The notes beneath the pieces were generated by a model, which did not search any database, had not been told where the DNA came from, and was given only the letters and a program-made list of their open reading frames with translations. Below are positions 2,751 to 62,440 of a DNA stretch of 64,000 nucleotides, piece after piece. The stretch is from assembly GCA_963741205.1 (NCBI GenBank), contig CAVUHW010000015.1, positions 32,001-96,000 on the forward strand. Direction: 5' to 3'. Every line of letters begins with the position of its first letter. Position 1 is the first letter of the stretch. A program made the translations under genes and the position numbers. The stretch is from Nitrospirota bacterium. Its GTDB lineage: Bacteria; Nitrospirota; UBA9217.

Positions 2751-2870
2751 TGTCATACCTGCGAAAGCAGGTATCCATTGGCTTTTATGACCAACTTCAA
2801 AATGGATTCCTCGATTAAATCGGGCAAGCCCGCTGGAGTTTATCCCGACTCCGTCGGGGCGGGAATGACA
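2751..2870. repeat. REP-like palindromic element (TGTCAT...ATGACA termini, GNATCC/GGATTC cores)
   Basis: tgtcatacctgcgaaagcaggtatccatt ... aatggattcc ... gcgggaatgaca. Related sequences at ~5497-5560 and 39274-39380. Confidence 0.7.
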
Positions 2871-2906
2871 AAAAAGTGTAGATGAAGCGATAGGAGGAAG
2901 CAAATT

Positions 2907-3641
2907 ATGAAAATCCATGTCGGTACAAGCGGGTTTGCACATAAGGAATGGAAGGGAACGTTCTATCCTGAAAAGATCTCACCCAAGGAAATGCTTCGCT
3001 TCTATGCCGAACGCCTCAACACGGTAGAGATCAATAATACCTTTTATCACATGCCCAAAGAGAGCGTGCTCTCGTCCTGGGCGGACCAGGTCCCCGATGA
3101 TTTCGTTTTCGCACTCAAAGCGCCCCAGGTCATAACACATATCAAGCAGCTGCGGAATGTATTCGAGGAGACCGAGTATCTGTTCAAGACGCTGTCAATT
3201 ATGGGCAACAAACTGGGGCCGGTCCTTTTTCAGTTTCCCAAGAGTTTTCGCGCGAACCTGCCCACGCTGCAGGATTTTCTTCCGCTGATACCCGGCACTG
3301 TTTCATGTGCATTCGATTTCCGCAGTCCATCCTGGCTCGATGCTGGAACTCCAAACCTCCTTCGTGAAAAGGGATGCAGCTGGTGCATCGAGGATACTGA
3401 CGAAAACCCGGTGAAGGAGATCATCAGTACGGCGGCCTGGGGGTACCTGCGCCTGCGCCGTTCCGATTACACGGATGCCGATCTGTCACGATGGTTGGAA
3501 AGAATCCTTTCGCAAAAATGGGAAAGGACCTTTGTTTATTTTAAACACGAGGATGAGGCCAAAGGGGCTGAAATGGCGATGCGCTTTCAGGAGCTTATCG
3601 ATGCAAGAACATCAGCTCCCAGAAAAAAGGCTCGATCCTGA
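2907..3641 (+). CDS. DUF72 (YecE) family protein
   Basis: 'IHVGTSGF..KEWKGTFYP', 'TVEINNTFY', 'LGPVLFQFP', 'YLRLR', 'VYFKHE'; RBS AGGAGGA. Confidence 0.92.
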   Translation: MKIHVGTSGFAHKEWKGTFYPEKISPKEMLRFYAERLNTVEINNTFYHMPKESVLSSWADQVPDDFVFALKAPQVITHIKQLRNVFEETEYLFKTLSIMGNKLGPVLFQFPKSFRANLPTLQDFLPLIPGTVSCAFDFRSPSWLDAGTPNLLREKGCSWCIEDTDENPVKEIISTAAWGYLRLRRSDYTDADLSRWLERILSQKWERTFVYFKHEDEAKGAEMAMRFQELIDARTSAPRKKARS

Positions 3642-3653
3642 ATACACCGTTGC

Positions 3654-4121
3654 TCACGGGCAATACAAGCGCGCACGGTAATCATTTCCGGTGACGTAGT
3701 TCTCGAGTGTTTGGATCGTGGAGTCCTGCTCGCAAACGACCGTTTTGACGACGTCGCCGAGGCTCACGAGACCGACGATCACGCCTTTCTCCATGATGGG
3801 CAGATGGCGGATATGGTTAATCGTCATGAGCGCCATGCAATCCCTGATCGTAAGCGCCGGGTCCCCGCAGATCGGCGGAGAGCTCATCAGCTCCCCGACA
3901 GTCGTGCTCTTGGAGGATTTCCCTTTCAAGATTACCTTCCGCGCATAATCCCGCTCCGAGAAAACGCCGGCCAGCCTTCCGTCATCAACGACCAGGAGCG
4001 CCCCGATGTTCTTCTCCGCCATAAACTCCAGGGCCTCATATGCGGTCGCGTTCGGCTTGATGGCGAAGTAGTCGTGTCCCTTCGCGCGCAGCACCTGTTC
4101 GATCGTAATCGTCGAATTCAT
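3654..4121 (-). CDS. CBS-domain pair protein
   Basis: 'IGALLVVDDGRLAGVFSERDYARKV', 'IRHLPI...GLVSLGDVVK'. ATG at 4121 with RBS GGAGGAGG. Confidence 0.92.
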   Translation of the reverse strand: MNSTITIEQVLRAKGHDYFAIKPNATAYEALEFMAEKNIGALLVVDDGRLAGVFSERDYARKVILKGKSSKSTTVGELMSSPPICGDPALTIRDCMALMTINHIRHLPIMEKGVIVGLVSLGDVVKTVVCEQDSTIQTLENYVTGNDYRARLYCP

Positions 4122-4154
4122 GTCTACTACCTCCTCCTTGCACGATGCCTCAAT

Positions 4155-4200
4155 AAAAAAAGCCGGGCATACCGAAGGTTTTTCCTTCGGCAGCTCGGCC
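4155..4200 (-). terminator. Intrinsic terminator forming the riboswitch expression platform
   Basis: GCCGAGCTGCCGAAGG-AAAAA-CCTTCGGTATGCCCGGC-TTTTTTT overlaps the aptamer 3' strand. Confidence 0.8.
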
Positions 4201-4265
4201 ATCTTCTTTCAAGACCCGCGGCGTTCCTTCCCCTTCTCGCGAAAGGGTCGGCTTTGTCGGGAAAT
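4184..4265 (-). ncRNA. GEMM-I (cyclic di-GMP-I class) riboswitch aptamer
   Basis: Minus strand CGACAAAGCCGACCCTTTC-GCGA-GAAGGGGAAGGAACGCCGCGGGTCTT-GAAAG-AAGATGGCCGAGCTGCCGAA follows GEMM-I architecture (P2 with GNRA loop, P3, 3' GCCGA). Confidence 0.8.
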
Positions 4266-5432: not shown

Positions 5433-5690
5433 TCATGAGTTTAACCCAAAATCAAAGACATTTCAGCGCACAAGGCGCAAACCCGCAGTGGTCAGAGCGG
5501 GAATCCAGTCTTAGTTTTGAAAGAAATTGGATCCCCGGATAGAGGCATTCGGGGATGCCGGTCAGTGGCTATTAACAGCAATTATGAGTCCATTGATAAG
5601 TCAGGCTTTCCTTTGCGCCCTCTGCGTCTTTGCGAGAGATCGCTTTTGATTTTGAATTCATGCTTTATTGGTCTGAGGCGTTGTCTCGTT
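5433..5690. repeat. Composite palindromic element: CGCAAAG-type arms enclosing a GGGAATCC REP-like module
   Basis: caaaatcaaag..gcgcacaaggcgcaaa pairs with tttgcgccctctgcgtctttgcgaga..ttttgattttg. The 3' part recurs at 18527-18582. Confidence 0.65.
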
Positions 5691-6539: not shown

Positions 6540-9500
6540 TTACCCCTTTCGGTTTCCGGCTGCGTGCTCGAGGACCTGCTGGATGTGAACATCCACCTGC
6601 CGGAGGACCGAAGGCGATACCGCGTAGCCGTCGCTCTCGTAGGTCAGGATGGGCATCCCTTGCCGGATACAGAGGGGTTTCAGGATCGACTCCGAAATCC
6701 GGAACGGGAGACAGTTAAACGGCCCGATGTTGATGATCCCGTCATAGCCATCGGTCTCGGCCTCCAGTCCCCGGCCCACGGTCGGGAGGATTTCGCCGTA
6801 GATTTCCGGCGAAACATGCACGGAGGCCTTCTCAAACAGGGACTCGGCGTTATTGGGGCCGGCCACGAGCAGGCCGGTCTTCCCGAATAACTTCCGGTAG
6901 TCTCCCTCGTACCATCTCTCCAGCTGATAGGCGAGCCAGTTCTGCAGATACTGCTTTCCGTCGCTTGCGAGGACCCTCGTGCAGGCCTTGGCGAATGCAA
7001 GACTGCCGGGCTTCAGGTCCCATCCCTGAGCGGTTTCGGATACCGCGTTATAGAGGTGATAGAGAAGGAGATCGCTCAGATCAACCGGCTTCAGGATAAT
7101 GCCCCGGTCGGTATAAAGGTCGCGTACGCCTTCTATGAAAAAAGGATTGAACCGGGTGAAAAAATCGCCGATCACTACCACCCGCGGGCAGGTCTGCGGT
7201 TTCCGGGTGCGGGGAAGCGTTGCCAGCCGCTCGACGAGGCCGGGCAAATCGACCTGGAACCTGGTCGGGCGAGCTTGTCGCGGCGACGAACTGCTCCCAT
7301 TGCCGCCGAAGCCGGTCCACAGCTGTCTTCGGATCCCACCACACGAAGAACGTGCTCGATCTCCACGACGATGTCCGCTACCAGCAGCGTGAGCGCCGTG
7401 TTTTTTGCGAGGGTCAGCTTGTCGAACCCGAGTTCTACGCTTTTTTCTTTCGGGCTGAACACGAAGATGTCGGGCAGCTGCTGCTCGGCGATGAAACGCT
7501 CGAGGTACCCCATGTAGGAGTCTATCACGCAGGGAGCGCCGCCCTGCAGCATGAAGAACCCGCAGATCTCGCCGGGTTGGCGCTGCTCGTGGATCCTGAG
7601 CAGTTGCCCGACGCAGAGCGGCAGGGGGAGGCACTCCCGTCCCGAAGTGTATTGGAGGCCCCGTTCAAGCTGGCTCCGGTCCAGGGGAAGCGAGTCGCCG
7701 GCATGCAGGCCCGACCAGCGGACAGCCATGGCCAGGGCCTCTGAATGGAATTCGGAGAAGTTGGGAAAGTAGAGCTTTACCCGGGGATCGGTCAGCGGTA
7801 CGCTTTCTCCCCGGGAGCTGATGACGTGGCCGCCGTCGACAAGCCGGCACGGGGAGAACTGATGCGTATTCACGGCCGGCACGGGCTGATAGGTCCGGAT
7901 GATGTCAAGGAACGCCTCGATGCGGGTTTGGACCCCGGCGTCAGCGGTGTGCGCATCGATCTCGAGGGTCAGATACGGAGTGGAGCCCATCTTGGATGCA
8001 ATCAGGGCATGGGTGAACGCATCCACGGTGCAACTGTAATTGCTGACGCACAGGAGGAACAAATTGGGGTGCCGCTTGGCAAGGGCCACGGCGTTCAAGA
8101 CCTGGTTGGAGAAGTACCACGACGTGGGCCCCTCTTCGATCGGCGCCAGGCAATCAGCAGGGATTGCCGTCACGCCCATGCTGGAGAGCTTCTTTCCCAC
8201 CGATTGGGAAGCCTCCGGCGAGTAGGCATTGTAGCTGTGGCCCGCAAGCAGAATCGCGGGCCTCCCTTGCGATATCGCGTGATCCAGCGCCTGCTGCCCA
8301 AGCTCCCGCATGGCGCGCTCCACTCCGGTTTGAGCGTTCTTTGCCGCATCCCATGCTTGCAAGACGCGTTCGCGGCCGACTCCCAGTTCCTCTGTTGCCA
8401 TCTCCACCAGTCCGGAACCGATCTCGTAGCCACGCGTGAAATCCAGGAGCGGAGAGAGAAAACGGACTTCGGGAAATGCCTTGGCCAGGAAATAGGGGCT
8501 GGCCTGAGTGATGGGGCACAAGTAGGAGTCGCGGCACCCCCTGGGTTGCGGCATGCGCGCTATATGGGGCAGAAAGACCAGGTTGACGCCTTGTCGCGCA
8601 AGGTCCAACACCGCCCCGTGCGCTGTTTGCACGGGGAAGCAAAAGCCGGAATAGGATTTCAGCTCGCCGTGCGGGTCCACTTTTGACAACACCACGTCCA
8701 GTCCCAGAGACGAGAAGAAGGTTGAGTAGAGAGGGTAGAGCGAGTAGGTGATCAACGCCCTCGGAATGCCGATGCGCAGCTTACCCTTATCATGCTCACG
8801 GCCTCGTTCGTAAGTGGACGGCTGAGGGGCATCGTGCGTCGGCTCGACCGGCCGGTCCGTGGGCTTTCCAAAGATCAATCCGGCCCGCTGCTCGACCAGG
8901 TCCGGAGCCGCGGAGGTGCGGGCCTTCCTCTTCCATACGCTTTCATACAGGCTGCAGCGGCCGCCGAAAGGAAATTTTCGGCCGGCCACTTCGAAACGGT
9001 CGATGCTGCAGCGCATCGGGCATGCCCCGCAGGTGAAGCGGCCGGGAGACTCCATCTCAGGCGCGGCCAGGGAAAGCAGGTCCGTCGCGGAAGCGAACAG
9101 GCCTTCCGACCGCTCGAGGGCCAGCAGCGCGACACCCAGCGCCCCCATGAGCTCAGGGCTGGGGGGGATGACCACGGTGCGGTCCACGCTCTGAGCAAAG
9201 GCGTGGCCTATCGCGCGGTTCAGGGCAACGCCGCCCTGCAGAAACACCTTCCTGCCCACGACACGCGGTCCCTTGACCTTGGTGAGATAGTTGGCGGCGA
9301 TGGCATGGACCAGCCCGGCAACGATGTTCTCCCGCGACTGACCTTGCTGGAATGCGATGCGAATGTCGGAATTGATGAACGCCGCGCACGTTGCCTTTAA
9401 CTGCACCGGGGAGGGTGCGGCCAGCGCGATCTCGGCGATGTCGTTCACCGAGATGCCGAGGTCGCCTTGCGCGCTCTCTTCCAGAAAGGAGCCCGTGCCG

Positions 9501-11536: not shown

Positions 11537-12100
11537 ATGAGGAAATTATTCGTATTCAACCTGGTAACGCTTGACGGCTACTTTGAGGGGCCGAGCAGGG
11601 ATATCAGCTGGCATAACGTGGATGCGGAATTCAATGAATATGCAGTCGAAATGCTCGATTCCGTGGATACGCTTCTCTTCGGCCGTGTGACGTATGACCT
11701 CATGGCAAGTTTCTGGCCGACCCCGGACGCGGTGAAGAACGATCCTCTCGTCGCCGGAAGAATGAACAGTCTGCCCAAGATCGTTTTTTCAAGGACGCTG
11801 GATAAAGTCGAATGGAACAATACCAGGCTGGTAAAAAACAATATCGAGGAAGAAATAAGGAAAATGAAAGCGCAGCCAGGCAAGGATATGGCGCTTTTGG
11901 GAAGCGGCGTCATGATGTCGGAATTTGCGCAGGCCGGACTGATTGATGAATACCGGATCATGGTGAATCCTGTTGTCCTGGGTAACGGCAACCCGTTATT
12001 CAAAGGCATCAAGGACAGACTCAACCTGAAACTGGTAAACACAAAGATCTTTAAGTCAGGGAACGTTTTGCTGTATTACCAACCGGTGAAATTGAACTAA
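11537..12100 (+). CDS. Dihydrofolate reductase-like RibD_C domain protein
   Basis: 'TLDGYFEGP', 'LFGRVTY', 'KIVFSRTL', 'LIDEYRIMVNPVVLGNG'; RBS AAGGAGG. Confidence 0.9.
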   Translation: MRKLFVFNLVTLDGYFEGPSRDISWHNVDAEFNEYAVEMLDSVDTLLFGRVTYDLMASFWPTPDAVKNDPLVAGRMNSLPKIVFSRTLDKVEWNNTRLVKNNIEEEIRKMKAQPGKDMALLGSGVMMSEFAQAGLIDEYRIMVNPVVLGNGNPLFKGIKDRLNLKLVNTKIFKSGNVLLYYQPVKLN

Positions 12101-13745
12101 AGTCCGCGCATTCCCCCTGCTAGGGGCGAAGCGCCAGGAGGGGGTCAAGCGGACTGTTTTGGATGTGGATTGGTGAGTTGTCTGTGCTACAAAACGATAT
12201 GCAATCTTATAATATAGTGCCGATGGCTGCAGCGTATTATTGAGTTGCACTATCAGGATTCATCACCTATATTAGAGATGTGGCGATTTTAAGCGGCATA
12301 AAATTCCATTGCTACCCGACAATGGAGCAGTCCGATATTCTCGCGCAGTGGATGGGCTGCCAGCGATTTATCTACAACGCCAAGGTTGCCGAAGAACGTT
12401 ATTTCCGAACATTCCGGAATCATTCGCTGTCACTAACCGGACTACAGACGCCGATCGACCAGCAGTACTCCCAGTTTAAGGACAAGGATCTCACTCCGTT
12501 TTTATACAATGTGCCGTCTCAGATCCTAAGGAATGGCGCAACCAGGTTCATGGGCTCCTACAAGAGGTACCTGACGGGACTGTCGGGTCGCCCTGCTTAT
12601 AAAAAGAAGGCTGGACGGCAGTCCGTCTGGATTACCAGCGAGCTATTCAGGTTCGTTCCTACTGGAGGCTCAAAACAGCGGCGGGACAAAACAATATATG
12701 AGCACCGGCTGATGCTTGGCACAAAGTCGGTCGATCTGGGCGAACTTAAGTTCAAGGCTCACGATGAGTACGAAATTCCGGCGGCTATCACCATTACCCG
12801 GGAGTCCGGGAAATGGTATGTCTCCTTCTCCTATGAGAAGCAAGGCACAGTTTTGAGCGAGCAGGAACTTCTCGAGCTTTACGGCGGCATGTCATCAGAG
12901 AGTCTTAATACCGTTACACTGGGAATGGACCGCGGGATTGTAATCCCGCTGGCAACGAGCGACGGCTCGGTGCATGACTTCTCCGGCATCCAAAAAGAGC
13001 GACTGTTAAAAAAGGATGCCCGGAAGAAGAGATATCAGAGGCAAATGGCGAGGCGGATCAAAGGATCCGGCCGATTTAGGCAATCAGTTGCGAAATCAGC
13101 CCGCTGCCAGGCTTATGCTGCAAACGTAAGGCATGATTTCGCGCATAAGGCCAGCCGCAAGCTCGTGGATTCACCCGCGGAGGTGTTCGTCTTCGAGGAC
13201 CTCAAGGTCAAGAACATGACCAGAGCGCCAAAGCCTAAGAAGTCGGCCGGCGGGACGTATATTGCGAACGGGTCAAAGGCCAAGGCCGGTTTCAACAAGT
13301 CCATACTCGAATCAGCGTGGGGCAAGGTAAAACTCTTTACGACGTACAAAGCCTCGCGACGCAACAAGCTCGTAATCGCCATACCGCCGCACGGCACCTC
13401 ACAGGAGTGTTCGAAGTGTTCGCACACTCACCCGGATAATCGCCAGTCACAGGCGGTGTTCGATTGCCAAAGCTGTGGCTTTACGGAAAACGCCGATACC
13501 AATGCGTCTCTCGTTATCAAGAGGCGCGGCATAGAAATGCTTGTGTCCGGCGTAATTGCCGTAAAGCATCACAAACGCGCCATGCGGTTAAGGAAGAAGG
13601 AAACACTAGGCCGGGAACCGGCCGAAGTTACGCGCGGGGAGAAGCAGATAAGTCACGCCTTGGGAACTACTCAGGGACTGCACGCTTCTATGATCCGCGA
13701 AACCCCCACTGCAACCATGTAATTGGTTCAGTGGCGGGTAGTTCA
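12097..13745 (+). mobile_element. IS200/IS605-family element carrying tnpB without an intact tnpA (IS1341-like); ends inferred
   Basis: Left hairpin agtccgc..ccccct..agggg..gcggact (12101-12155). Right hairpin ccccactgcaacc..ggttcagtggcggg followed by TTCA (13742-13745). Confidence 0.75.
12280..13722 (+). CDS. tnpB: RNA-guided endonuclease TnpB
   Basis: N-terminal 'GCQRFIYN'; RuvC residues in 'GMDRG', 'VFEDL', 'NADTNAS'; zinc finger CSKC...CQSC. Confidence 0.93.
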   Translation: MAILSGIKFHCYPTMEQSDILAQWMGCQRFIYNAKVAEERYFRTFRNHSLSLTGLQTPIDQQYSQFKDKDLTPFLYNVPSQILRNGATRFMGSYKRYLTGLSGRPAYKKKAGRQSVWITSELFRFVPTGGSKQRRDKTIYEHRLMLGTKSVDLGELKFKAHDEYEIPAAITITRESGKWYVSFSYEKQGTVLSEQELLELYGGMSSESLNTVTLGMDRGIVIPLATSDGSVHDFSGIQKERLLKKDARKKRYQRQMARRIKGSGRFRQSVAKSARCQAYAANVRHDFAHKASRKLVDSPAEVFVFEDLKVKNMTRAPKPKKSAGGTYIANGSKAKAGFNKSILESAWGKVKLFTTYKASRRNKLVIAIPPHGTSQECSKCSHTHPDNRQSQAVFDCQSCGFTENADTNASLVIKRRGIEMLVSGVIAVKHHKRAMRLRKKETLGREPAEVTRGEKQISHALGTTQGLHASMIRETPTATM

Positions 13746-15144: not shown

Positions 15145-15354
15145 ATGACGGTCATGGATAAAATAGTGCAGCACATTAAAGGTCTGCCGGAAGCGCTGCA
15201 GGCGGAAGTGCTCGACTTCGTCGAATATCTTGAGGCAAAAAAGGGAAAGAGCGAGGCCGATTGGACGGCCTTCTCGCTGTCATCCGCCATGCGCGGCATG
15301 GAAGACGAGCCCCCGCTCTAATCGGCTCAAGACCTTAAAGAAAGCTTTAAATGA
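15145..15354 (+). pseudogene. DUF2281-type antitoxin with an in-frame TAA at 15319-15321
   Basis: MTVMDKIVQHIKGLPEALQAEVLDFVEYLEAK..SAMRGMEDEPPL*SAQDLKESFK*. The second stop overlaps the toxin start (ATGA). RBS AAGGAGA. Confidence 0.7.
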
Positions 15355-15698
15355 TCCAGGAAGGCCAAATAATCCTCTTCAAATTTCCGCAAACAGACCT
15401 GCCCTCTGGCAAACTCCGTTTCGCGCTTGTTATTCGAAAACTCCCCGGCCGGTTTGACGACTGGCTCATCTGCATGATTTCGTCACAACTGTCGCAACTG
15501 CTGGAAGATTTCGACGTGATTGTCGATGGGAACGATGCCGATTTCGAAACGTCCGGCCTCAAAACGGACAGCGTCATCAGGATCAGCCGCCTTGCCGTCG
15601 TCAGCAGCGCCATCCTTCTCGGCTCCATCGGTACGATCAGTGAAAATCGTCTCTCCCTCATTCGAAACAGAATAGTGGAATGGATTCAGGGCGCGTAG
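15351..15698 (+). CDS. PemK/MazF family toxin
   Basis: 'GQIILFKFPQTD...KLRFALV', 'ICMISS', 'SGLKTDSVIR'. Confidence 0.8.
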   Translation: MIQEGQIILFKFPQTDLPSGKLRFALVIRKLPGRFDDWLICMISSQLSQLLEDFDVIVDGNDADFETSGLKTDSVIRISRLAVVSSAILLGSIGTISENRLSLIRNRIVEWIQGA

Positions 15699-15720: not shown

Positions 15721-16385
15721 ATGACCATCTTCGTGCACAGCAAGGTTGAGGCGTTTGTGCATGAAGAGTTGTTTGACCGACCGGTGGAACTGGAAGATCC
15801 CAACATATTACGCAATATACCAGAACTGGCCGCTACCAAGACACTGCTTGAGACCTTCAAAAAGGCTATCAACGCGCTGAATGTCCGGGATAAAGGCGAC
15901 GCAGAGATCCGGGACACGATCAAATTGCGCCAGACCCGGCCTTTTGTGGCCAAGAATCAAGCTACCTTGTTCCGAAGAAAAGAGTTTTCAACCGCATCAT
16001 TGGTGAAAGCAATCTGGAGCTTCGGTTTGCCGCATTTCTGGAGAACTGTCGCGACGAAGAGGTCTCTTACGCGAAGAACTACTTGGCTGCTAATTTTAAG
16101 CTCGAGTACGTGAAGGCGGACGGCGACATTTCCAACTACTACCCGGATTTTATAGTCAAGTAGTCCGAAAAGCGGATTGTCATCGTAGAAACGAAAGGGC
16201 AGGAAGACTTGGATGTGCCGCTGAAGATGGCACGGTTGCGGCAATGGTGTGAAGACATCAACCGGGTGCAGAAAGACGTGGAATACGACTTCGTTTAGGT
16301 GGACGAAGAGGGCTTTGAGAAATTCAAACTAACATCATTCCGGGACTTGCTGGATGGCTTCAAGGAATATAAAGGGGAAACATGA
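15721..16385 (+). pseudogene. C-terminal remnant of a type III restriction (Res) subunit
   Basis: After a frameshift near 15970: 'YAKNY..FKLEYV..NYYPDFIVK*..IVETKG' (PD-(D/E)xK). TAG stops at 16161 and 16296; no helicase part. Confidence 0.75.
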
Positions 16386-16450
16386 CAAGGCGCTCCGCAC
16401 CGGGCCGTTTTCTGCTGAGTTCCAAAGCCGCCAGTGAGCTTCAGTGACCG
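16382..16450 (+). repeat. Degenerate attC-like site
   Basis: acaaggcgctc-cgcaccgggcc..gccgccagtgagctt resembles attC inner arms; the core RYYYAAC/GTTRRRY boxes are eroded. Confidence 0.35.
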
Positions 16451-21270: not shown

Positions 21271-21400
21271 AAGAGTACAGAGTAGAGCGTTAAAGGTTCA
21301 GGGTTCAAAGTTCAGAGTTTGGAGTGAAATCATGGGGGCAGAGCACATTTTTTACGCTTAATACTTTGAACTTTGTGCCTTGAACGATGAACTCTGTTTT
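21271..21400. repeat. Palindromic tandem-heptamer element (GTTCAAA/TTTGAAC type)
   Basis: aaggttcagggttcaaagttcagag ... ctttgaactttgtgccttgaacgatgaact, directly after the Omp85 stop. Confidence 0.75.
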
Positions 21401-27994: not shown

Positions 27995-28125
27995 TTGGAC
28001 GCTGATTTGCGCAGATGCACGCAGATATTTAAGAGCGTGAGTAAAATCTCAAGTCGCCTTTTTTTGTGAATACCGACTTGCGATTATTTTTTTACCTGCG
28101 AAAATCTGCGTTCATCTGCGTCCAA
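27995..28125. repeat. Palindromic element with TTGGACGC...GCGTCCAA termini (GCAGAT-type tandem arms)
   Basis: ttggacgctgatttgcgcagatgcacgcagat ... ctgcgaaaatctgcgttcatctgcgtccaa. Confidence 0.8.
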
Positions 28126-28373: not shown

Positions 28374-29621
28374 ATGCGGATAAAGCTGCTCGTTTTTCTG
28401 GTTTATTCTCTCGTACTCATCCATCCTGCTCAAGCCGAACAGCAGGTCATAAACCTCAAGGACCTCGAGCAGGAAGCGATCCGGAACAACCCCGAAATCC
28501 TCACGGCCCAGCAGAGGACCGAATCTACACGGGAGAGGGCGTCCTTTGCCGCGGCGATGCCGGACCCGATGATCGGTTACATGGTCCAGAACGTTGGATC
28601 GCCTTTCGCCTGGAGCGTGGGGCAAGAGGACATGAGCATGCAGGGGGTGGTTTTCTCGCAGGAGATACCCTTTCCTGGCAAACTGAGCGCGAAAGGGAGG
28701 GCGGCGGAAAAGGAGTCCGAACGCACGTCGGAGGCGGCCCGTGAAACCAAGCTCAGGGTCCTCTCGAACCTGCGGACCGCGTATTACGACTATTACCTCG
28801 CCTTCAAATCCGTCGAAATATTGGACAAGACAAAAGAGCTGATGAAAAATTTCCAGCGCATTGCCGAAACGCGGTACGCGACGGGTCAGGGCATGCAGCA
28901 GGACGTCTTGCGCGCGCAGGTCGAGGTCTCAATGCTCCTCGACAAGATCGCCGAGCAGGAACAGAAAAAAGAGGCCCAGGCCGCCACGATCAACAGGCTC
29001 GCGGGACGCGACCCGCTGGCGCCTCTCGGCAGGCCCGCAGAGCTGACCGCCGCAACCTTTGGCCGGAGCCAGGAAGAGGTCGCCGCCATGGCCCTGAAGC
29101 ACTCCCCCGTGCTTGAAGAGCGGCGACACATGGTCGAGCAGAGCAGGGAGGAACTGTCGCTCAGCAAGAAGGAGTTTCTGCCCGATATGGTTGTTTCCGG
29201 CGGATGGTTCTCGAGGGGCGAGAAGCAGGATGTATGGTCTGCGAGCGTCATGTTCAAAGTCCCCCTCTATTTCTGGAACAAGTCCACGGCGGTCCGGGCC
29301 GCATCGGCGGACGTCCTCTCGACCGAGCACGATTACGATGCGGCCAGGCTTGATGCGCTCGCGCGCGTCAAGGACCTCTATACCACGATCAAGACGTCGG
29401 AGCACCATATCCACCTTTACGAGGAGGGCATTATTCCCCAGGTGCGGCTCGCCCTGCAGTCGGCTGCCACGAATTATCAAGTGGGCAAAACGGACTTTCT
29501 GACGCTCCTCGACAGCGAAAGCCTCCTGCTCAAATATCAATTGATGCAGCAGGAAGAGCTGGTGAACTGGAACAAGAATCTTTCCATGATCGGGGAACTG
29601 ACGGGAGAAGAGCATGAATAA
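28374..29621 (+). CDS. TolC-family outer membrane efflux protein of a heavy-metal RND system
   Basis: Signal peptide; 'SQEIPFPGKL', 'YQVGKTDFLTLLD'; first gene of the operon. Confidence 0.88.
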   Translation: MRIKLLVFLVYSLVLIHPAQAEQQVINLKDLEQEAIRNNPEILTAQQRTESTRERASFAAAMPDPMIGYMVQNVGSPFAWSVGQEDMSMQGVVFSQEIPFPGKLSAKGRAAEKESERTSEAARETKLRVLSNLRTAYYDYYLAFKSVEILDKTKELMKNFQRIAETRYATGQGMQQDVLRAQVEVSMLLDKIAEQEQKKEAQAATINRLAGRDPLAPLGRPAELTAATFGRSQEEVAAMALKHSPVLEERRHMVEQSREELSLSKKEFLPDMVVSGGWFSRGEKQDVWSASVMFKVPLYFWNKSTAVRAASADVLSTEHDYDAARLDALARVKDLYTTIKTSEHHIHLYEEGIIPQVRLALQSAATNYQVGKTDFLTLLDSESLLLKYQLMQQEELVNWNKNLSMIGELTGEEHE

Positions 29622-38493: not shown

Positions 38494-38641
38494 TCAAGAT
38501 GCAGATTCTATCTCCTAGCCCAGAGCTCATGAGAAATTCGTTAGCTTATTCTAAGTCGTCGACCTCTGTGCTCTCTGTGTGCTCTGTGGCAAATCTAGAC
38601 TTATTTCAATTTCATCAAAGCTACCGAACGAGGTAAATGCC

Positions 38642-39273: not shown

Positions 39274-39380
39274 TGTCGATTCCCGAAACTGCTATCTATC
39301 GGGAATCCAGGTTCTTCAAGCTACAAAGCGAAAATCAAAACTCTACTGGATTCCTGGCTATGTGTCATGCCGGAATGACG
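39274..39380. repeat. REP-like element (GGGAATCCAG/CTGGATTCC, GGAATGAC end)
   Basis: gattcccgaaac..atcgggaatccagg ... ctggattcctggc..gccggaatgacgg. Confidence 0.7.
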
Positions 39381-44266: not shown

Positions 44267-45034
44267 ATGCAGAACCTGGACCGGATGGAGCACGACATAC
44301 GGCGGCTTGCGGGCAGGGCCATCGGTGATTATGGCCTGGTCGAGGACGGCGACCGCATACTCGTCGCGCTGTCAGGCGGCAAGGACAGCTTTACGCTGCT
44401 CCGCATTCTCCAAAGCCTTCAAAAGCGGGCGCCGGTGGCATTCTCCCTCATCGCCGTAACGGTCCATCCGGGGTTCCCCGGCTTTCAGACGCAACGTATC
44501 GAGGATTATCTCGAAACACGCGGCGTCGAGCACCGGGTCGTCCATGCCCCGATCCACAAGCTCATGATCGAGAAGCTGACGCCGGATGATACTCCCTGCG
44601 CCCTCTGCGCCCGGCTGAAGCGCGGCGTGCTGTATACTCAGGCGCGCGAGCTGGGCTGCACCAAGATCGCCCTCGGACATCACCGGGACGATTTCATCGA
44701 GACGCTCCTTTTAAACCAGTTCTACAACGGCAAGATCAAGGCCATGGCCCCGCTGCTCCGGGCCGACGACGGGAGGAACGTCGTGATCCGGCCGCTCGTA
44801 TACGTTCCGGAGGACGATATTATCCGCTTCGCCGTTCTTGCGGGCTTTCCCGTAACTTGCTGCGCCTGTCCGGCATGCGGGGACCAGGACCTGAAACGGT
44901 CCAGGATCAAGGGCCTGCTCGCGGCGCTGGAGCAGGAGCAGCCCGGGGTCAAGGCAAGCCTCCTGGCCGCGCTTGCCGACGTGGACTGCCGCCATCTCCT
45001 CGTGAAAGCGGATGAGGTAGGAAGTAGGAAGTAA
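44267..45034 (+). CDS. ttcA: tRNA 2-thiocytidine(32) synthetase
   Basis: PP-loop SGGKDS, 'CALCARLKRG', 'GHHRDD', 'IRPL', 'CPAC'. Confidence 0.92.
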   Translation: MQNLDRMEHDIRRLAGRAIGDYGLVEDGDRILVALSGGKDSFTLLRILQSLQKRAPVAFSLIAVTVHPGFPGFQTQRIEDYLETRGVEHRVVHAPIHKLMIEKLTPDDTPCALCARLKRGVLYTQARELGCTKIALGHHRDDFIETLLLNQFYNGKIKAMAPLLRADDGRNVVIRPLVYVPEDDIIRFAVLAGFPVTCCACPACGDQDLKRSRIKGLLAALEQEQPGVKASLLAALADVDCRHLLVKADEVGSRK

Positions 45035-45062
45035 GAAGTAGGAAGAAGAAGTAAGAAGTAGA
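45016..45062 (+). repeat. Tandem AGTARGA heptamers spanning the ttcA stop
   Basis: ggtaggaagtaggaagtaagaagtaggaagaagaagtaagaagtag. Confidence 0.85.
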
Positions 45063-45117
45063 GAAGGGTGGAGACACCTGTATTGCATCGAGGGCGGTTT
45101 TTGCTTATAATAACGCC

Positions 45118-46383: not shown

Positions 46384-46492
46384 AGAACCGGGGAACCGGG
46401 GAGAATAAAAACCGACGGAGAGAATCTGAGAAACGGAGAAAAAGTTTTACTCATGCCTACCCTTCTCCCGTTCGCCGATTCCCCATTCGGCT
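46384..46492. repeat. Palindromic tandem element (AACCGGGG/TTCTCCCG type) at the gspC/D junction
   Basis: agaaccggggaaccggggagaa..aaacggagaa ... ttctcccgttcgccgattccccattc. Confidence 0.7.
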
Positions 46493-50286: not shown

Positions 50287-50388
50287 GTCAGAAGACAGAA
50301 GTCAGAGATCAGAGCGAAGAGACCAGGAGACGACATGGTGTTCACCTTTGTCTATCTTCTGGCAACTCTGACACTCTGTACTTCGTGA
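50287..50388. repeat. Palindromic tandem element (CAGAAGT/CTCTGAC type) at the gspE/F junction
   Basis: gtcagaagacagaagtcagagatcagag ... ttctggcaactctgacactctgtac. Confidence 0.7.
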
Positions 50389-51634: not shown

Positions 51635-51729
51635 AACCACAGATGAACACAGATGGGCACTGTTTAAGACTTAAGAAATGAAAAATTATTAATCTTTAAA
51701 CCTGTGTTAATCTGTGTTCATCTGTGGTT
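51635..51729. repeat. Empty palindromic element (ACACAGATG arms) at the gspF/G junction
   Basis: Perfect 20-bp inverted repeat AACCACAGATGAACACAGAT (51635-51654 / 51710-51729). Confidence 0.9.
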
Positions 51730-51752: not shown

Positions 51753-52187
51753 ATGAAGAATCGGAAGGGTTTCACCCTCATTGAAATCATGGTCGTCATC
51801 ATCATCCTGGGTCTCTTGGCGGGCCTGGTGCTCCCCAAATTCCTCGGGCAGGAGGAGAAGGCCAAGGTCGAGGTGGCGAAGACGCAGATCCGCGCTCTTG
51901 AGGGGGCGCTGGACGCGTACAAGCTCGACAACGGGTTCTACCCCACGACCGACCAGGGACTGGACGCCCTGATCAAAAAGCCGGAAACGGGACGCATACC
52001 GGATAAGTGGCGGGAGGGCGGGTATCTGAAACCCGCGAGGATCCCGAAGGACCCCTGGGGCAAGGATTACGTCTACATCGCCCCGGGCAGCGAGAACAGG
52101 GAGTACGAGATCATTTCCTACGGCGCGGACGGCGAGCCCGGCGGCGAGGGCAACAACGCGGACATCGAGAGCTGGAAGATGCAATAA
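51753..52187 (+). CDS. gspG: Major pseudopilin
   Basis: MKNRKG|FTLIEIMVV; 'YKLDNG.YPTT.QGL', 'KDPWG'; RBS GAGGAGG. Confidence 0.95.
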   Translation: MKNRKGFTLIEIMVVIIILGLLAGLVLPKFLGQEEKAKVEVAKTQIRALEGALDAYKLDNGFYPTTDQGLDALIKKPETGRIPDKWREGGYLKPARIPKDPWGKDYVYIAPGSENREYEIISYGADGEPGGEGNNADIESWKMQ

Positions 52188-52297
52188 TGCGGAATGCGGA
52201 ATGGATGCGCACCCCTCACCGCGTCCCTCTCCCCAGTGGGGAGAGGGGGGAAAAGAGAGTCCTCTCCCCCGCGGGGAGAGGATTAAGGTGAGGGGGG
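52187..52297. repeat. ATGCGGA heptamers plus a CCCTCTCCC palindrome inside the gspH leader
   Basis: atgcggaatgcggaatgg..cccctcacc..ccctctccccagtggggagagggg..cctctcccccgcggggagagg..ggtgagggg. Confidence 0.85.
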
Positions 52298-52803
52298 ACT
52301 TATCGCATTCGAAAGGCTTCACCCTCATCGAGCTCACGGTCATCATCGTGATTCTGGGCGTCATGCTCTCGCTCATCATCCCCCGGCTCGGTGAGCTGGG
52401 CGAAGCGAACCTGAAGCGGAGCGCCAGGCACCTTACCGGGATGATCCGCTTCCTTCGGGACGAGGCGCAGGCGAAGAAATCCAGTTTCCGGCTGCGCTTC
52501 GACGTTGCGGAGGGACGATACTGGACCGAGGTTTTGACATTGAACCTCAGCGAGAAGACCGCCGAGTTCAGGCGGTATTCATCGGAAATGGGAACAGAGG
52601 GCAGTCTTTCAGGCCAGACGACATTGCGCGATGTCAAGGTTGCGAGCCATCCCGACGATCCGTATATCGAATTCTCGCCCACCGGATGGGTGGAGCACTC
52701 CTTGATCCATCTTCGTGACGGCGACGGACGGGATTTCACGCTCTTGGTCAATCCGCTCACCGGCAACACCGAACTCCGCGAGGGATATATCGAGGAGCGA
52801 TGA
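52201..52803 (+). CDS. gspH: Minor pseudopilin with a long repeat-derived leader
   Basis: 'SKG|FTLIELTVIIVILG'; position in the operon. Confidence 0.85.
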   Translation: MDAHPSPRPSPQWGEGGKESPLPRGERIKVRGDLSHSKGFTLIELTVIIVILGVMLSLIIPRLGELGEANLKRSARHLTGMIRFLRDEAQAKKSSFRLRFDVAEGRYWTEVLTLNLSEKTAEFRRYSSEMGTEGSLSGQTTLRDVKVASHPDDPYIEFSPTGWVEHSLIHLRDGDGRDFTLLVNPLTGNTELREGYIEER

Positions 52804-52865
52804 TGAAGAATTGCGGATTGCGATGGAAGTGCGGAAGGCAGGACTGATTCCGAATTCGGATTAGC

Positions 52866-53271
52866 TTGAATCGTTTACATTCCGCAATCCGCAATCCGCA
52901 ATCCGCAATCGAAGGGTTTCACTCTCCTCGAGGTCATGGTCGCCGTCTCGATCATGGCCATGGTGCTGGTGACCCTCATGGGGCTCAAAAACAGGTCCAT
53001 GCAGGACGTGGCGCTGGACGAGCATATCACCACGGCGACGATGCTGGCTGATGGGAAGATGCTGGAGACGATAAAATCACGGAACTTCGATGCAGTAGAA
53101 GAAGAGGGAGAATATCCAGCCGGGGAAAATCTTACGGAGTACACCTGGAAGAGAACAATCTCTAAAATACCGCTTCCCAACGGTACGTTGCTCACGGAGA
53201 TTCGTATTGCCACGCTGTGGAAAGAAGGCACGCGCCCGGAGATGGTGGAACTGGTGGACTATGAATTGTGA
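52866..53271 (+). CDS. gspI: Minor pseudopilin; the upstream start is out of frame with the pilin motif
   Basis: 'SKG|FTLLEVMVAV' at 52909-52947; in-frame TGA at 52867; AATCCGC tandem repeats directly upstream of the cleavage motif. Confidence 0.8.
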
Positions 53272-53994
53272 AATTTCGGATTTCGGATTTCGGATTTCGG
53301 AATGGAGAATGCTGAGGTTCCAAAAGAACTCAAATCCGCAATCCGCATTCCGCAATCCGCAATCGAACGGGTTCACGCTTCTTGAAGTGCTTATCGCCGT
53401 GGCGATCATGGCGGGAATCATTACCGTTATCTATCAGAGTTTTTTTACCGCAAGCAGAAACGTTGAACAGGCGGAAGCAATACGGGATTCGTCTGACATG
53501 GCGCGCACCCTGGTGGCGAAAATCTCCGATGATATATCCAATGCATATTATAATCAGGCAATGAACAGGTCCGCAGTCATTACGATTTTCAACGGTAAGA
53601 AGGAACAGGCTGATTCGACTGGACGAGAAAAGCAGGCTTGACAGCATTACCCTGACAACACTTACGAACTGGAGACGGCCGAACACGAAAGAGACCGATC
53701 TCTGGGAAGTCGGTTATTTTTTCAGGCAAAAGCCGGATGGCTCGGGTTATGTCATGATGCGCAGGGAAAAGCGGGAACTCAGCAAGGATGTACCGGCAGG
53801 CGAGGGCGGCAATCGAGTATGAGATCACGGACCGCGTGAAGTTTTTGCAGCTGCGGTATAACACGGGTGGAGACACCTGGTACGATGAATGGAACAGCAC
53901 GAGCCGGAACGGGCTCCCAAAACTGGTGGAGATAGCGCTGACACTCGACAGCGGGTTGACCTACTCAACATACGTTGAAGTTCAAAAATATTAG
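53261..53994 (+). CDS. gspJ: Minor pseudopilin with a repeat-derived leader, frameshifted
   Basis: MNCEISDFGFRISE..NPQSAFRNPQSNG|FTLLEVLIAVAI; C-terminal 'LPKLVEIAL'. Confidence 0.85.
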
Positions 53995-54839
53995 CCGACG
54001 CGTCAGGGAGTGCGGGGTGCGGAAGGGTCATCATTGGGTGCGCAACAGTCGCGGGGTGGCGCTTATCATCGTTCTTTTGGTTACGGCGCTTTTGATCGCG
54101 TTGATTTTTGAGTTTGCCTACGGAACGCGGGTGAGCCTCCGTGCCGCCGTAAACTTCCGCAACAGTGAGAGGGCATATTTTCTCGCACGCTCGGGTTTCG
54201 GGGTATTCGCCAGGTTTCCCGAAGTGCGGGATTATTATCATCAAGGGGAATTGAGTGACCCCCTTCCTTTCGTGAGTGAAGCCGACAAGGAACTGAGAGT
54301 CCTATGGGAAGATGAGCGCGGAAAAATCAATGTGACAAACATATCCAGGGGGAATGTCGCTTTCAACCGTCTCACGAATCTATTTTCCATTCTCCAGATC
54401 GACCAGGGCATTCTTGACCAGATCAGTTCATGGATGACCAATGAGCAAAGAGGCTTCTATTTGCTTACCGAGCTTCACCTGTTCCTGAGCGACGACGACT
54501 ACCGGAAAGTCGAGCACTTTCTGACGGTAAACAACAATACGGACGAGAAGATCAACATAAACACCGCACCGTCCCAAGTTCTTCAAAGTCTCGGGTTAAG
54601 CGCCCCGGATGCAGACCGTATTGTTGATTCAGCAAAACAAGAACCCTTTGATCCAGGCAAAAAACCTGATCAATACCGCACCCGGTATGACCGCGATGAT
54701 CGCCGGACAATTGGTCACGTCAAGCAACGTGTTCAAAGTCAGCTCAATCGCAACGGTAGGCGGTTACACAAAGCACATTGATGCTATCATGACGATGAAC
54801 GGTCCTCAATACACCATAAACTACTGGAGAGCGCTTTGA
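53975..54839 (+). CDS. gspK: Minor pseudopilin K, frameshifted near 54660; start may be GTG 54017
   Basis: 'SRG|VALIIVLL', 'DERGKINV', 'KININTA'. Confidence 0.85.
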
Positions 54840-56181: not shown

Positions 56182-56536
56182 TGTAACCACAGATGAACAC
56201 AGATGGACACGGTAAAGACAGAGACAATGACCCTGAAAAGGATTCTTTATAAAGAATTAACAAAGGATAATCTGGACTCGGCTTTTAAAATACATAATGC
56301 CTGGGTTGCGGCTGCTGGAAAAAGTTTATGGCAATGCTCTGATATGGGATCTGGAACTAAAAAAGAAAAAAGTTTCAATGCAGCAACAATACAGCTGTTT
56401 GGTACTGATATCGTCGAAGAAAATCGTGGAAAAAATCTGTAACGGCGAGTTGCTCAATTATTTAAGGATTCTGGGTCGTGTTGGTCCTAATGGACCGAAA
56501 GAGTATGTTTGTTTAACGTGTTCATCCGTGGTTACA
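56182..56536 (+). mobile_element. Palindromic element with ACACAGATG arms carrying a decayed GxxExxY gene
   Basis: tgtaaccacagatgaacac (56182-56200) / gtgttcatccgtggttaca (56518-56536), 1 mismatch; same arms as 51635-51729. Confidence 0.7.
56227..56516 (+). pseudogene. GxxExxY family protein remnant
   Basis: 'ILYKELT..SAFKIHNA', then in another frame 'LLEKVYGNAL..', 'DIV' and 'LLNYLR'. Multiple indels and deletions; AT-rich. Confidence 0.75.
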
Positions 56537-61224: not shown

Positions 61225-61366
61225 CCGAGCAAAGGGATTCGTTTTGGTAGACGCAGGCTTTAGCCTGCGTTTGAAACGCCGCAAAAAACGAAAAAAACAC
61301 GCAAGCTGAAGCTTGCGGCTACAATATTTCATTAAGGCTTATAAAAAAACCGAGGAAGGAGATATC

Positions 61367-62350
61367 ATGCAGCGTTTTCACCGATTATCAATACCTGTGC
61401 TCACGGCTCTTTTCTTGCTCATCGGAACCATGCTGACTCTCCAGTCAGCCACCGTCATGGCCGCCGAAACAGGGGGCACGATCTGGGGCGCGGACTACTT
61501 CCCCGACGTCCCGCTCATCACTCATGAAGGAAAGACGGTGCGGTTCTTCAGCGACGTAATAAAAGGCAAGGTGGTGGCGCTCAATTTCATTTACACCAAT
61601 TGTCCGGATGCGTGCGCGCTGGAGACGGCGAGGCTTCGCGAGGTCCAGAGGATCCTCGGTGACCGTGTCGGCCGAGACGTGTTCATGTATTCGATTACCA
61701 TCGATCCGGAACATGATACGCCGAAGGTGCTGAAGCAATATGCGGAAAAATTTCAGATAGGTCCTGGCTGGTTGTTTCTGACAGGGAAAGAGGCCGACAT
61801 CACGCTTATCCGCGAGAAGCTCGGCCTGTACGGCGAGGAGGACAAAGGCGAAAGCCTTAAGGAGCACAACCTGAGTTTCATTATCGGCAATCAGGCAACG
61901 GGACAGTGGATGAAGATGTCGCCCTTTGAAAATCCCTATGTCCTGGCTACGCAGCTCGGAAGCTGGCTGCAGAACTGGAAGATGCCGCCGAAAGAAAAAA
62001 GAGATTATGCCGAGGCCCCGCAGGTGCGCAATATCTCGAAGGGAGAAGAGCTCTTCCGCACGCGCTGCGCTTCCTGCCACACGATCGGGATGAAGGATGC
62101 CGAGAGGGCGGAGAAGCGGCCCTTAGGACCGGACCTCCTGGGTGTGACCCATAAGCGCGACCGGGCCTGGCTCAACCGCTGGATGGCTGAGCCGGACAAG
62201 ATGCTGGCGGAGAAGGACCCGCTGGCCATAAAGCTTTTAGCCGAATACCACAACCTGCCTATGCCCAATCTGGGGTTAAACAGCGACGAGATCCAGAACG
62301 TGCTGAGCTATATCGATGAAGAGAGCCACAGAATGGGGTATCACCATTGA
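61367..62350 (+). CDS. SCO1/SenC copper chaperone fused to a cytochrome c domain
   Basis: 'FIYTNCPDAC', 'SITIDPEHDTP', heme motif 'CASCH', 'GPDL', 'MPN'. Confidence 0.9.
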   Translation: MQRFHRLSIPVLTALFLLIGTMLTLQSATVMAAETGGTIWGADYFPDVPLITHEGKTVRFFSDVIKGKVVALNFIYTNCPDACALETARLREVQRILGDRVGRDVFMYSITIDPEHDTPKVLKQYAEKFQIGPGWLFLTGKEADITLIREKLGLYGEEDKGESLKEHNLSFIIGNQATGQWMKMSPFENPYVLATQLGSWLQNWKMPPKEKRDYAEAPQVRNISKGEELFRTRCASCHTIGMKDAERAEKRPLGPDLLGVTHKRDRAWLNRWMAEPDKMLAEKDPLAIKLLAEYHNLPMPNLGLNSDEIQNVLSYIDEESHRMGYHH

Positions 62351-62351
62351 A

Positions 62352-62440
62352 GCGAATTGCGGAATTGCGGAATCGAAAATGAAGAAATGGCTCATTGCCG
62401 TTTAATCCGCAATCCGAAATCCGCAATCCGAAATCGCAAC
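62352..62440. repeat. Heptamer palindromic element (TGCGGAA/AATCCGM) between convergent genes
   Basis: gaattgcggaattgcggaatcg ... aatccgcaatccgaaatccgcaatccgaaatcg. Confidence 0.85.

Follow-up and report, generated by a model that had tools for sequence, protein, structure and literature searches.

Tandem-word palindromes at gene junctions of a Nitrospirota genome as likely ends and gene-less derivatives of small selfish cassettes

Introduction

Hairpin elements with arms made of tandem short words occupy gene junctions throughout the DNA analysed here, a stretch of 64,000 nucleotides (the window) from a Nitrospirota bacterium of UBA9217 (assembly GCA_963741205.1, contig CAVUHW010000015.1; G000:C15:32001-96000, where G000 is the source genome, 84% complete, C-numbers are its contigs and L-numbers label compared loci in other genomes). 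Among the closest described systems is that of SsnA, a GIY-YIG nuclease that cuts single-stranded DNA (ssDNA) at the NTS repeats flanking its gene, does not bind RNA and modulates transformation (PMC11893778). In Ssn-NTS (SRM-ssnA-SRM), as here, a small single-domain gene lies between inverted repeats that are also present alone in many copies, and its authors raise a mobile origin (PMC11893778). One family of the window, GTCATTCC...GGAATCCA, is the Ssn-NTS element itself (NTS/CGTC-REP; PMC11893778, PMC3733652). However, GIY-YIG is one of four cargo types here, Ssn-NTS arms are single palindromes and not tandem words, and the junction replacement, in-frame leaders and sites common to other families found here do not figure in the sections of the Ssn-NTS description cited (PMC11893778).

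Other known elements share further traits. The intervening sequences (IVSs) of 23S rRNA that bear an open reading frame (ORF; S23p) have a protein of the same family, inverted ends and tandem GACAGAT heptamers before the ORF (PMC4990558); they sit in an rRNA gene, whereas the cassettes here sit in protein-coding operons at many sites and lack an RNA-wobble signature. REP/REPIN/BIME-RAYT elements are likewise intergenic, downstream of ORFs, at co-directional or convergent junctions and in head-to-head pairs, with GTAG and CGTC types (PMC3733652, PMC3116915). Unlike them, the elements here have tandem-word arms, non-transposase cargo and whole-junction replacement, with no RAYT bracketed by arms. 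Dispersed 7-mer arrays, often in inverted pairs and at most 50 bp from gene ends, are known from Xanthomonas, Nostoc and Beggiatoaceae (PMC4692102, PMC4679880). The sections of those reports used here describe one word per genome and name no cargo gene, while over a dozen words tied to cargo clades occur in our material. In cyanobacterial STRR/SDR elements, reportedly described by Elhai in 2008, the SDRs are said to be tiny elements nested in heptamer arrays; in its behaviour the 42-nucleotide element described below would fit such SDRs.

Repeats in frame in proteins, as found here, are known from Rickettsia palindromic elements (RPEs) and in-frame MITEs (miniature transposable elements with inverted repeats; PMC10969869). 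Unlike RPEs, those described below are concentrated in cleaved prepilin leaders and exchanged between families with the frame kept. Free-standing homing endonuclease genes are optional AT-rich nuclease genes at fixed intergenic sites, with GIY-YIG, PD-(D/E)xK and Vsr-like folds. The cassettes here are homing-like in their optional AT-rich cargo at a fixed site, which in one pair appears younger than its flanks; they differ in having cargo of about 95-130 residues without a DNA-binding extension, arms of their own, one cargo that is no nuclease, and no long co-conversion tract.

One published paper mentions GxxExxY beside a cas4-like gene. A literature search, with subscription journals mostly outside it, linked neither GxxExxY, four-helix bundles or DUF559 to tandem arms nor such repeats to prepilin leaders; the Ssn, IVS and REP pieces were found singly, with none joining them. 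The elements are real, a variant of the Ssn/IVS/REP kind and possibly a class of their own.

Results

Small genes between inverted arms

The elements are best read as cassette ends and as derivatives that lack the gene; the small selfish cassettes in question would belong to four or more unrelated families and each consist of an arm, a small promoterless gene and an inverted arm. Arms of 7-mers go with a four-helix-bundle gene (TIGR02436/PF05635), arms of 8-10-mers with GxxExxY, and REP-type palindromes with DUF559 or an Ssn-type GIY-YIG gene; among 60 other genomes of the family, PF05635 was found in 47, PF13366 in 47 and PF04480 in 35. The 30 best loci for each cargo were compared with 20 shuffles, counting loci with full flanks. 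Inverted arms beat all shuffles at 26 of 28 four-helix-bundle loci (22 of period 7), at 27 of 30 GxxExxY loci (periods 8-10 in 24) and at 20 of 28 DUF559 loci, where the arms are CCCTC-type palindromes. Inverted arms were also present at 63 of 78 GxxExxY loci taken from many phyla.

The loci compared show each arm word to be paired with its own cargo clade. Arm words track cargo clades on trees of 30 and 35 proteins, drawn from kin that are not independent. TGCGGA, the commonest word in G000, brackets one four-helix-bundle subfamily in L383, L386 and L391, and GTTC(A/G)GA, TTGGAAA, CAAATAA and CAGGATG arms bracket further four-helix-bundle subfamilies. Cargo was matched to seven of the eight words listed in an initial annotation of the window; none was matched to the AACCGGGG/ACGGAGA 8-mer of gspC/D among the cargo loci examined. 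That annotation had proposed listing the ORFs found between each arm type, and GxxExxY, four-helix-bundle, DUF559 and GIY-YIG genes each proved to have arms of their own. Its view that full forms carry a small nuclease-fold gene needs correcting for the commonest arms, those of 7-mers, which carry a four-helix-bundle protein with no nuclease fold.

GxxExxY is predicted to be a Cas4/RecB-like PD-(D/E)xK nuclease, as fold and E...D...ExK residues fit. E34, D73, E83, K85 and QxxxY are invariant in 26 of 26 sequences, and the model (pLDDT 94) folds like Cas4 SSO0001 (Foldseek E 7.6e-4; VIA Z 8.3, rmsd 3.1 over 98), with which other restriction-like folds tie; a sequence search gave no solved structure related to GxxExxY. 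Between L001 and L002 the gene has a dN of 0.04 against a dS of 0.27, and its GC content is 41-43% against 55-62% in host genes. The four-helix-bundle cargo matches the pentamer 2gsc (E 1.8e-23) and, weakly, Avd (E 1.7e-7, below the cut-off).

In G000, broken GxxExxY genes lie between 8-10-mer arms at C43:48242 and C22:152677, the third being the gspL/M element of the window. A broken, frameshifted GIY-YIG gene at C18:167671 lies between GTCATTCC...GGAATCCA arms, giving the Ssn-NTS layout of a small single-domain GIY-YIG gene with NTS/SRM repeats on both sides; the GTCATTCC family motif has 149 copies in G000 against 2 in shuffled sequence. The IVS layout, a PF05635/TIGR02436 ORF between inverted ends, was found in relatives and not in G000. 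Separately, a small GIY-YIG gene at C22:146857-147563 (minus strand) lies past a tRNA gene among partial tRNA copies with an IS-end-like motif, a layout unlike the NTS cassette.

Replacement of whole junctions

Alleles were compared across 55 gsp regions of related genomes and are not independent. The alignment, suggested in the initial annotation, revealed empty, filled and cargo-bearing alleles. At gspL/M, GxxExxY cargo is present in 11 of 42 alleles beside broken, partial, solo-arm and empty forms, making a series from intact through broken (the window) and solo arm to empty; at gspM/N, empty in G000, DUF559 is present in 2 of 40. No cargo was found in any allele at E/F (47), F/G (52), G/H (55), H/I (50), I/J (49) or J/K (49), and most gene-less hairpins are therefore not shown to be remnants at their own site. 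The proposal that the hairpins are cassette remnants thus stands for the filled, broken, solo-arm and empty alleles at orthologous junctions and not for most gene-less hairpins, which have no cargo in any allele of their own site.

Beyond gsp, 90 cargo loci were considered, of which 51 could be placed on some 30 junctions of G000, 45 of the 51 with both host genes in the cargo's direction (orientation taken from the G000 mapping; a crude longest-ORF count is confounded by antisense frames). The mapped loci lie between protein-coding genes, none inside an rRNA gene, and at the corresponding site G000 is often empty or has a different family, as where a four-helix bundle of L110, L114 and L118 is matched by GxxExxY in G000. 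The nuo operon junctions of at least 21 genomes give the same pattern of filled, other-family and empty alleles. As these comparisons show, the putative cassettes sit between co-transcribed genes in the direction of the host genes, and replacement has its limits at conserved codons on both sides. At nuoA/B and nuoK/L (L235-L254), solo 3' arms of TGAACT words run into the ATG without a Shine-Dalgarno sequence in many genomes, like the Beggiatoaceae TAACTGA repeats.

Genomes 94-99% identical in the flanking genes differ by the whole junction, from stop codon to cleavage or start codon, with an unrelated word family in place (L192/L194 at G/H and I/J; L003/L195 at H/I and I/J). Neither a duplication nor a retained old spacer was found at replaced junctions in these close pairs, and alleles appear to replace each other instead of being added to an empty site. 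L004 is a chimera in which a TGCGGA 5' arm is joined to a 10-mer 3' arm that L003 has in full. Flanks are at least 92% identical in 28 junction pairs; the junctions themselves are less than 60% alike in 7 of these and reach 80% or more in 13. For 7 of 955 pairs, the likeness of the junction with its loop is no lower than that of the coding flanks (0.97 vs 0.89; 0.96 vs 0.85; 0.97 vs 0.89), and the L001/L002 cargo has a dS of 0.27 against 0.61-0.68 for gspL and gspM. Likeness above that of the flanks is what recent, homing-like horizontal exchange of the junction alone would give.

The same comparisons bear on whether the elements are ordinary MITEs or REPINs moved in trans by IS200 TnpA or RAYT with cargo captured by chance, which we judge improbable. 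They do have terminal inverted repeats around a short non-coding core, G000 has three Y1_Tnp matches and GTAG-type REPs, and the 42-nucleotide element described below inserts with a 0-1 nt duplication; peel-and-paste elements insert with no or 1-nt duplication. Nevertheless, a target-site duplication, of which the initial annotation too had seen no clear case, with an intact empty site was not found in close pairs apart from that nested element, and no old junction was retained. Full-length forms carry four-helix-bundle, GxxExxY, DUF559 or GIY-YIG genes instead of sharing ends with an autonomous transposase element, copies are not near-identical, and cargo and arm are strictly paired across phyla. 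The initial annotation had seen no matching transposase; G000 does have the three Y1 (HUH) matches, none of them tied to the arms, and at the two loci inspected tandem-word arms do not flank the gene as ends. No GTAG REP (10 copies) lies in the 500 nt on either side of the 301-aa Y1 gene, and tandem-word arms lack the GTAG tag. No described MITE or REP with its transposase, a match that would have told against the initial annotation, corresponds to the elements, though the GTCATTCC family represents NTS/CGTC-REP, already published along with the Ssn nuclease that belongs to it. A transposase-moved MITE may account for the GTAG REPs and the nested element alone. An IS200/IS605-type TnpB gene lies at window 12100-13722, and a related tnpA-bearing end at C34:18026-18988 adjoins a TGCGGA arm, apparently via a TTGA motif at the arm end.

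Elements of the window

The window contains ligD, tnpB, cusCBA, a ribonucleotide reductase and gspC-N. Several genes are split by single-base frameshifts, unbroken in relatives and probably assembly errors, and single broken frames in the window therefore carry little weight. Gene calls come from a hexamer model built for G000, with reliable stops and unreliable starts. Between 2752 and 62439 there are 21 elements or solo arms, 14 of which fold at z <= -2.8 (30 shuffles); solo arms and degenerate elements do not fold significantly. They are as follows (strand in brackets, a full stop where none is assigned).

2752-2869 (.): head-to-head NTS/CGTC-type REP pair (Ssn GIY-YIG cassette ends), 20 nt past the ligD stop; the same arms flank the broken GIY-YIG gene at C18:167671.
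5465-5640 (.): CGCAAAG-type 8-mer arms around an NTS-type remnant; this arm type brackets GxxExxY in L160.
8724-8747 (+): solo purine-rich array (GAGTAGA) without partner arm.
21277-21397 (.): hairpin of GTTCA(A/G)A heptamers that folds at z -6.3; in L379 and L115, four-helix-bundle genes lie between arms related to these.
27995-28125 (.): TTGGACGC / CGCAGAT 10-mer hairpin upstream of cusC, an arm type of GxxExxY cassettes.
29614-29720 (+): TGCGGA-type arm that contains a nested 42-nt element (29646-29687) and reads in frame at the CusB N-terminus, before the hydrophobic signal stretch.
30838-30971 (+): TGCGGA hairpin with nested 42-nt element (30851-30892), directly past the cusB stop.
35114-35254 (.): TTGGACGC / CGCAGAT 10-mer hairpin, z -5.2.
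38564-38588 (+): solo pyrimidine-rich 9-mer arm (CTCTGTG type).
39274-39380 (.): degenerate NTS/CGTC-type REP pair.
45017-45066 (+): solo AGTA(A/G)GA array overlapping the stop of a PP-loop gene; the word brackets four-helix-bundle genes in L120 and L121.
46385-46490 (+): gspC/D 8-mer hairpin (AACCGGGG / ACGGAGA); no cargo matched.
50287-50385 (+): gspE/F CAGAAGT heptamer hairpin, beginning 1 nt past the stop.
51635-51729 (+): gspF/G ACACAGATG 10-mer hairpin, gene-less, z -9.4.
52186-52314 (+): TGCGGAA-armed element of gspG/H that has a DUF559-type REP pair within it (52212-52295) and reads in frame in the prepilin leader of GspH, whose cleavage codon is at 52315.
52808-52914 (+): TGCGGAT hairpin of gspH/I, located where the GspI leader is encoded; the assembly has its frame broken, and it is open in 35/37 long alleles.
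53261-53368 (+): gspI/J TTCGGAT hairpin encoding the entire 35-residue GspJ leader, its ATG overlapping the gspI end.
53995-54055 (+): gspJ/K degenerate 5' arm alone, GspK leader region, z +1.0.
56182-56536 (+): cassette of gspL/M in which CACAGATGAA arms enclose a GxxExxY gene (from 56227) that is broken, has lost part of its length and over 213 nt is 76% identical in DNA to the allele of L005, which is intact.
61246-61322 (.): GTAG-type REP pair, 10 strict copies in the genome.
62354-62439 (.): TGCGGA hairpin between convergent genes, 3 nt past the SCO gene stop, z -6.5.

The initial annotation's inventory of about 20 elements, with eight unit types and REP-like families, was recovered at every place, to which are added a third REP-like family (GTAG type) and the nested 42-nt element. 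Its figure of eight occupied gsp junctions out of 11 holds only if J/K, a degenerate 5' arm, is counted; C/D, E/F, F/G, G/H, H/I, I/J and L/M are clear. Most elements do lie at gene junctions, but those at G/H, H/I, I/J and J/K are inside coding leaders and not intergenic. An Rfam search of the window returned no family for the elements; its sole match was a c-di-GMP-I riboswitch aptamer, above the gathering score, at 4186-4262 (minus strand), the 5' end of a 182-aa ORF (3654-4202, minus strand). At 15145-15698 and 15721-16390 lie a small antitoxin-like ORF with a PemK/MazF gene, then a broken restriction-enzyme-like fragment.

Abundance and placement across the genome

The whole-genome scan for tandem and inverted repeats that the initial annotation had recommended gave arrays and inverted pairs (partner within 700 bp) far in excess of a locally shuffled genome. 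G000 has 233 arrays of period 7, 132 of them paired (shuffle 5 and 0), 27 of period 8 with 14 paired (5 and 0) and 27 of period 10 with 14 paired (1 and 0); periods 6 and 9 are partly chance (82 arrays and 7 paired vs 22 and 2; 101 and 21 vs 28 and 1). After removal of hairpins above 66% GC, which are chance pairs from GC-rich stretches (parts of C10 and C13), 131 were kept, some of them merges of two neighbouring elements; the family tests used 117 (at most 170 nt, outside gene calls). Very GC-rich stretches of C10 (about 117000-160000) and C13 (about 171000) are unlike the remaining assembly, and contamination or chimeric contigs are possible.

Co-directional junctions hold 103 of the 131 hairpins and convergent ones 19, with 4 divergent, 4 inside gene calls and 1 at a contig end; divergent spacers are depleted (4/563 junctions vs 122/3454 elsewhere, Fisher p 7e-5). 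As the initial annotation had noted, elements begin near stop codons: 77 of the 103 co-directional hairpins start within 25 nt of one. Placement is not random. This closeness follows in part from elements filling short operon gaps and is mixed with any targeting. Presence across relatives is patchy and not invariant, the strict TGCGGA hairpin being found in 13 of 28 family genomes and in 0 of 123 others; invariance would have spoken against the annotation's proposal.

At least 15 word families occur in G000. Of 117 hairpins, 103 have a purine-rich arm on the 5' side. Solo arms conform to this as well: in 24 of 29 it is the purine arrays that lie nearer the stop. This strand asymmetry bears on a very improbable alternative, that local polymerase slippage and template switching made the hairpins and ordinary recombination spread them passively. 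Unit number does vary between alleles, general recombination alone can swap short spacers, and slippage has been proposed for heptamer excess (PMC4692102). However, identical words turn up at many loci and in many phyla, where they go along with cargo clades, the purine arm is predominantly 5', and the mirror arms expected from template switching were not seen.

Hairpins in prepilin leaders

The G/H, H/I and I/J elements sit between the start codon and a G|FTLxE site, which we take to be the prepilin cleavage motif of GspH, GspI and GspJ. Among gaps of at least 60 nt, the reading frame is open in 104 of 111 alleles (G/H 34/36, H/I 35/37, I/J 35/38), against 25/72, 20/74 and 28/76 for the two other frames and 1 of 75 at control junctions (E/F 1/41, L/M 0/26, M/N 0/8). 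F/G gives 15/51 and J/K 15/20. For hairpins at other places in G000, the frame continues open into the following gene in 10 of 97. At I/J the length is 1 mod 3 in 45 of 49 alleles. The leaders reach 72 residues, and the CusB N-terminus also carries an in-frame arm. At G/H, H/I and I/J, as in RPEs, the repeat is thus in frame within an intact ORF, and we infer that these hairpins are translated through and then cleaved off with the leader. Across the genome, the elements appear to be tolerated only where cheap, as the placements show: in stop-to-ribosome-binding-site gaps, in convergent gaps and, if in frame, in cleaved leaders.

A further pilin-like gene at C34:145498-145700 has a TGCGGA element in its leader region, with the frame broken in the assembly. 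Heptamer or 8-mer arms also lie in frame, RPE-like, at C27:95609-96238 and 98549-98979 (cobalamin-pathway-like) and at C6:155524-156257 (molybdopterin-type), the names being read from translations.

A nested 42-nucleotide element

G000 contains 33 strict copies of a hairpin of 41-44 nt, which is longer where one copy sits in another; two of the copies, at 29646 and 30851, belong to the window. It inserts into arms of all families and its removal restores the host arm, making it what appears to be the clearest precise insertion in this material. G000 and 80 metagenome loci together gave 93 distinct sites, and at every one of them the element follows a C, mostly as C|RR on the purine-rich strand; 65 of the 93 fall in an arm that was recognised, compared with 17% for control sites. 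The element is oriented by the target strand and not by transcription (18 sense vs 12 antisense). Of 28 family genomes 11 have it, of 123 others none, and further palindromic families absent from the window (such as GGCTCAGAC|AGTCC and GGCAACAC|GGTTGCC types) carry it in L262, L273, L284, L291, L292, L305, L317 and L322. No significant replication-strand bias was found (26 of 43 on the G>C strand, p 0.22), and no guide-like match of its variable loop to the target was evident by eye. The element suggests that unrelated arms have a common exposed or nicked site.

DNA sites or RNA stems

Stems kept in mRNA should show more G-T than A-C mismatches on the sense strand. In G000 hairpins the two are equal (133 vs 137), and RNA-hairpin tuning is therefore unsupported. 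The ratios in the four cargo sets (69/54, 42/53, 50/46, 107/94) are not significant and that in leaders is 86/91, against 39 vs 12 in terminator-like controls. Ranked against other arms of its family, an element's own arm gives a slight excess (mean rank 0.56, n 92) that is inflated by hairpin selection, and the arms appear scarcely to co-vary. In the GCATAG family the same four positions vary in both arms, and not at adenines only. Adenine-only variation, as in diversity-generating retroelements, was not seen in arms.

These data make it unlikely that the elements are mRNA intervening sequences, whose arms would pair in the transcript and be cut by RNase III, the released RNA being reverse-transcribed with the help of an Avd-like four-helix-bundle protein. 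That reading has a precedent in the Coxiella 23S IVS, with its tandem GACAGAT heptamers, S23p gene and RNase III excision (PMC4990558), and the weak, sub-threshold Avd score, ten RVT_1 matches in G000 (four clustered at C10:79178-84134, others on C12, C14 and C45) and cargo and loops that follow transcription would suit it. It is opposed by the missing sense-strand G-U excess, which the terminator-like control has, by arms that are not mirror copies and in the GCATAG family vary at the same positions in both without being restricted to adenine, by hairpins read through in leaders and by SsnA, which has no action on RNA in the cited part of its description (PMC11893778).

The initial annotation had suggested mRNA hairpins that tune operon stoichiometry, and this idea fares poorly given the absence of a G-U excess, the little arm co-variation and the fast wholesale turnover. 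A broader form of it, in which the host selects hairpins that set mRNA stability or subunit ratios and the cargo genes are passengers, is quite unlikely as well. Nearly all non-overlapping gsp and nuo junctions are filled, arms remain recognisable while loops differ, and solo 3' arms often abut a start codon, like TAACTGA repeats (PMC4679880), all of which would agree with a host function. Yet close genomes have unrelated families, solo arms or nothing at the same junction, and the lack of a wobble or covariation signature, the leader position and the patchy presence of TGCGGA also count against one. Side effects of junction elements on expression are possible.

Discussion

In their sequences the arms resemble series of degenerate sites that are two-fold symmetric. 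The comparisons show the arm-cargo pairing, decay series, junction replacement, tolerance rules and strand symmetry of the putative cassettes, and they point to a little-described kind of selfish DNA and not to gene-regulating hairpins. We lean, by a small measure beyond even, towards DNA-level, arm-recognising selfish cassettes like Ssn-NTS, in which the cargo would bind or nick its own arms on ssDNA and recombination in the flanks would install the allele. Under this model the arms would offer the cargo protein rows of degenerate sites to bind, recognised as DNA and not as RNA stems. As SsnA does at NTS, the cargo would act on them while DNA is taken up, replicated or repaired, and the cut or protected junction fragment would be built in by recombination in the two flanking host genes. 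The junction allele could then spread, homing-like, to the same junction of related genomes, while rare illegitimate joins would seed new junctions and make two-family chimeras. Gene-less hairpins would ride along in trans, and the 42-nt hitchhiker, which goes in at C|RR on an arm's purine-rich strand, would thereby make use of those sites too. A wider proposition seems to us attractive though somewhat short of even: that these are widespread transposase-free elements homing to gene junctions, in which four unrelated folds, each recognising its own tandem word on ssDNA, drive whole-spacer replacement, with junctions and leaders contested and with a hyperparasite of their own.

Several observations weigh against the cassette model. 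G000 (84% complete) gave no four-helix-bundle or DUF559 match in domain searches, yet has about 120 hairpins, and its GxxExxY and arm-flanked GIY-YIG genes are all broken. The four-helix-bundle cargo of 7-mer arms is no nuclease, leaving the movement of 7-mer elements without an assigned agent. Copies within G000, at most 62-79% alike, are never near-identical, so no recent burst has been caught. No long co-conversion tract was found beside swapped junctions in a test confounded by pair distance, the gspL/M cargo tree against that of the host (1/5 branches starred) does not prove discordance, and replacement could be insertion followed by deletion; the kin compared are not independent. A weak G-T excess appears when E/F, F/G and L/M are pooled across kin (101 vs 71, p 0.027). 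Loops are often oriented with transcription, and in a few cassettes (L067, L047) near-perfect stems run into unique flanks; an RNA step would give all three, the excess included.

Through the pairing of arms and cargo, a predicted substrate, the word that flanks their own genes, can be assigned to three large families whose function is unknown, and short oligonucleotides, as used for Ssn, become a way to approach them. Such pairing also suggests how dispersed heptamer arrays come about, a long-standing puzzle. In conserved operons, hairpins of the spacers can be selfish DNA that turns over fast. Leaders of type IV prepilins seem to be tolerated at lengths of up to 72 residues, a point that bears on start-site annotation. 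If the junction-homing class is true, it would provide a function for the GxxExxY, four-helix-bundle and DUF559 families, explain the bacterial heptamer excess and be a source of sequence-specific ssDNA binders and nucleases with readable targets.

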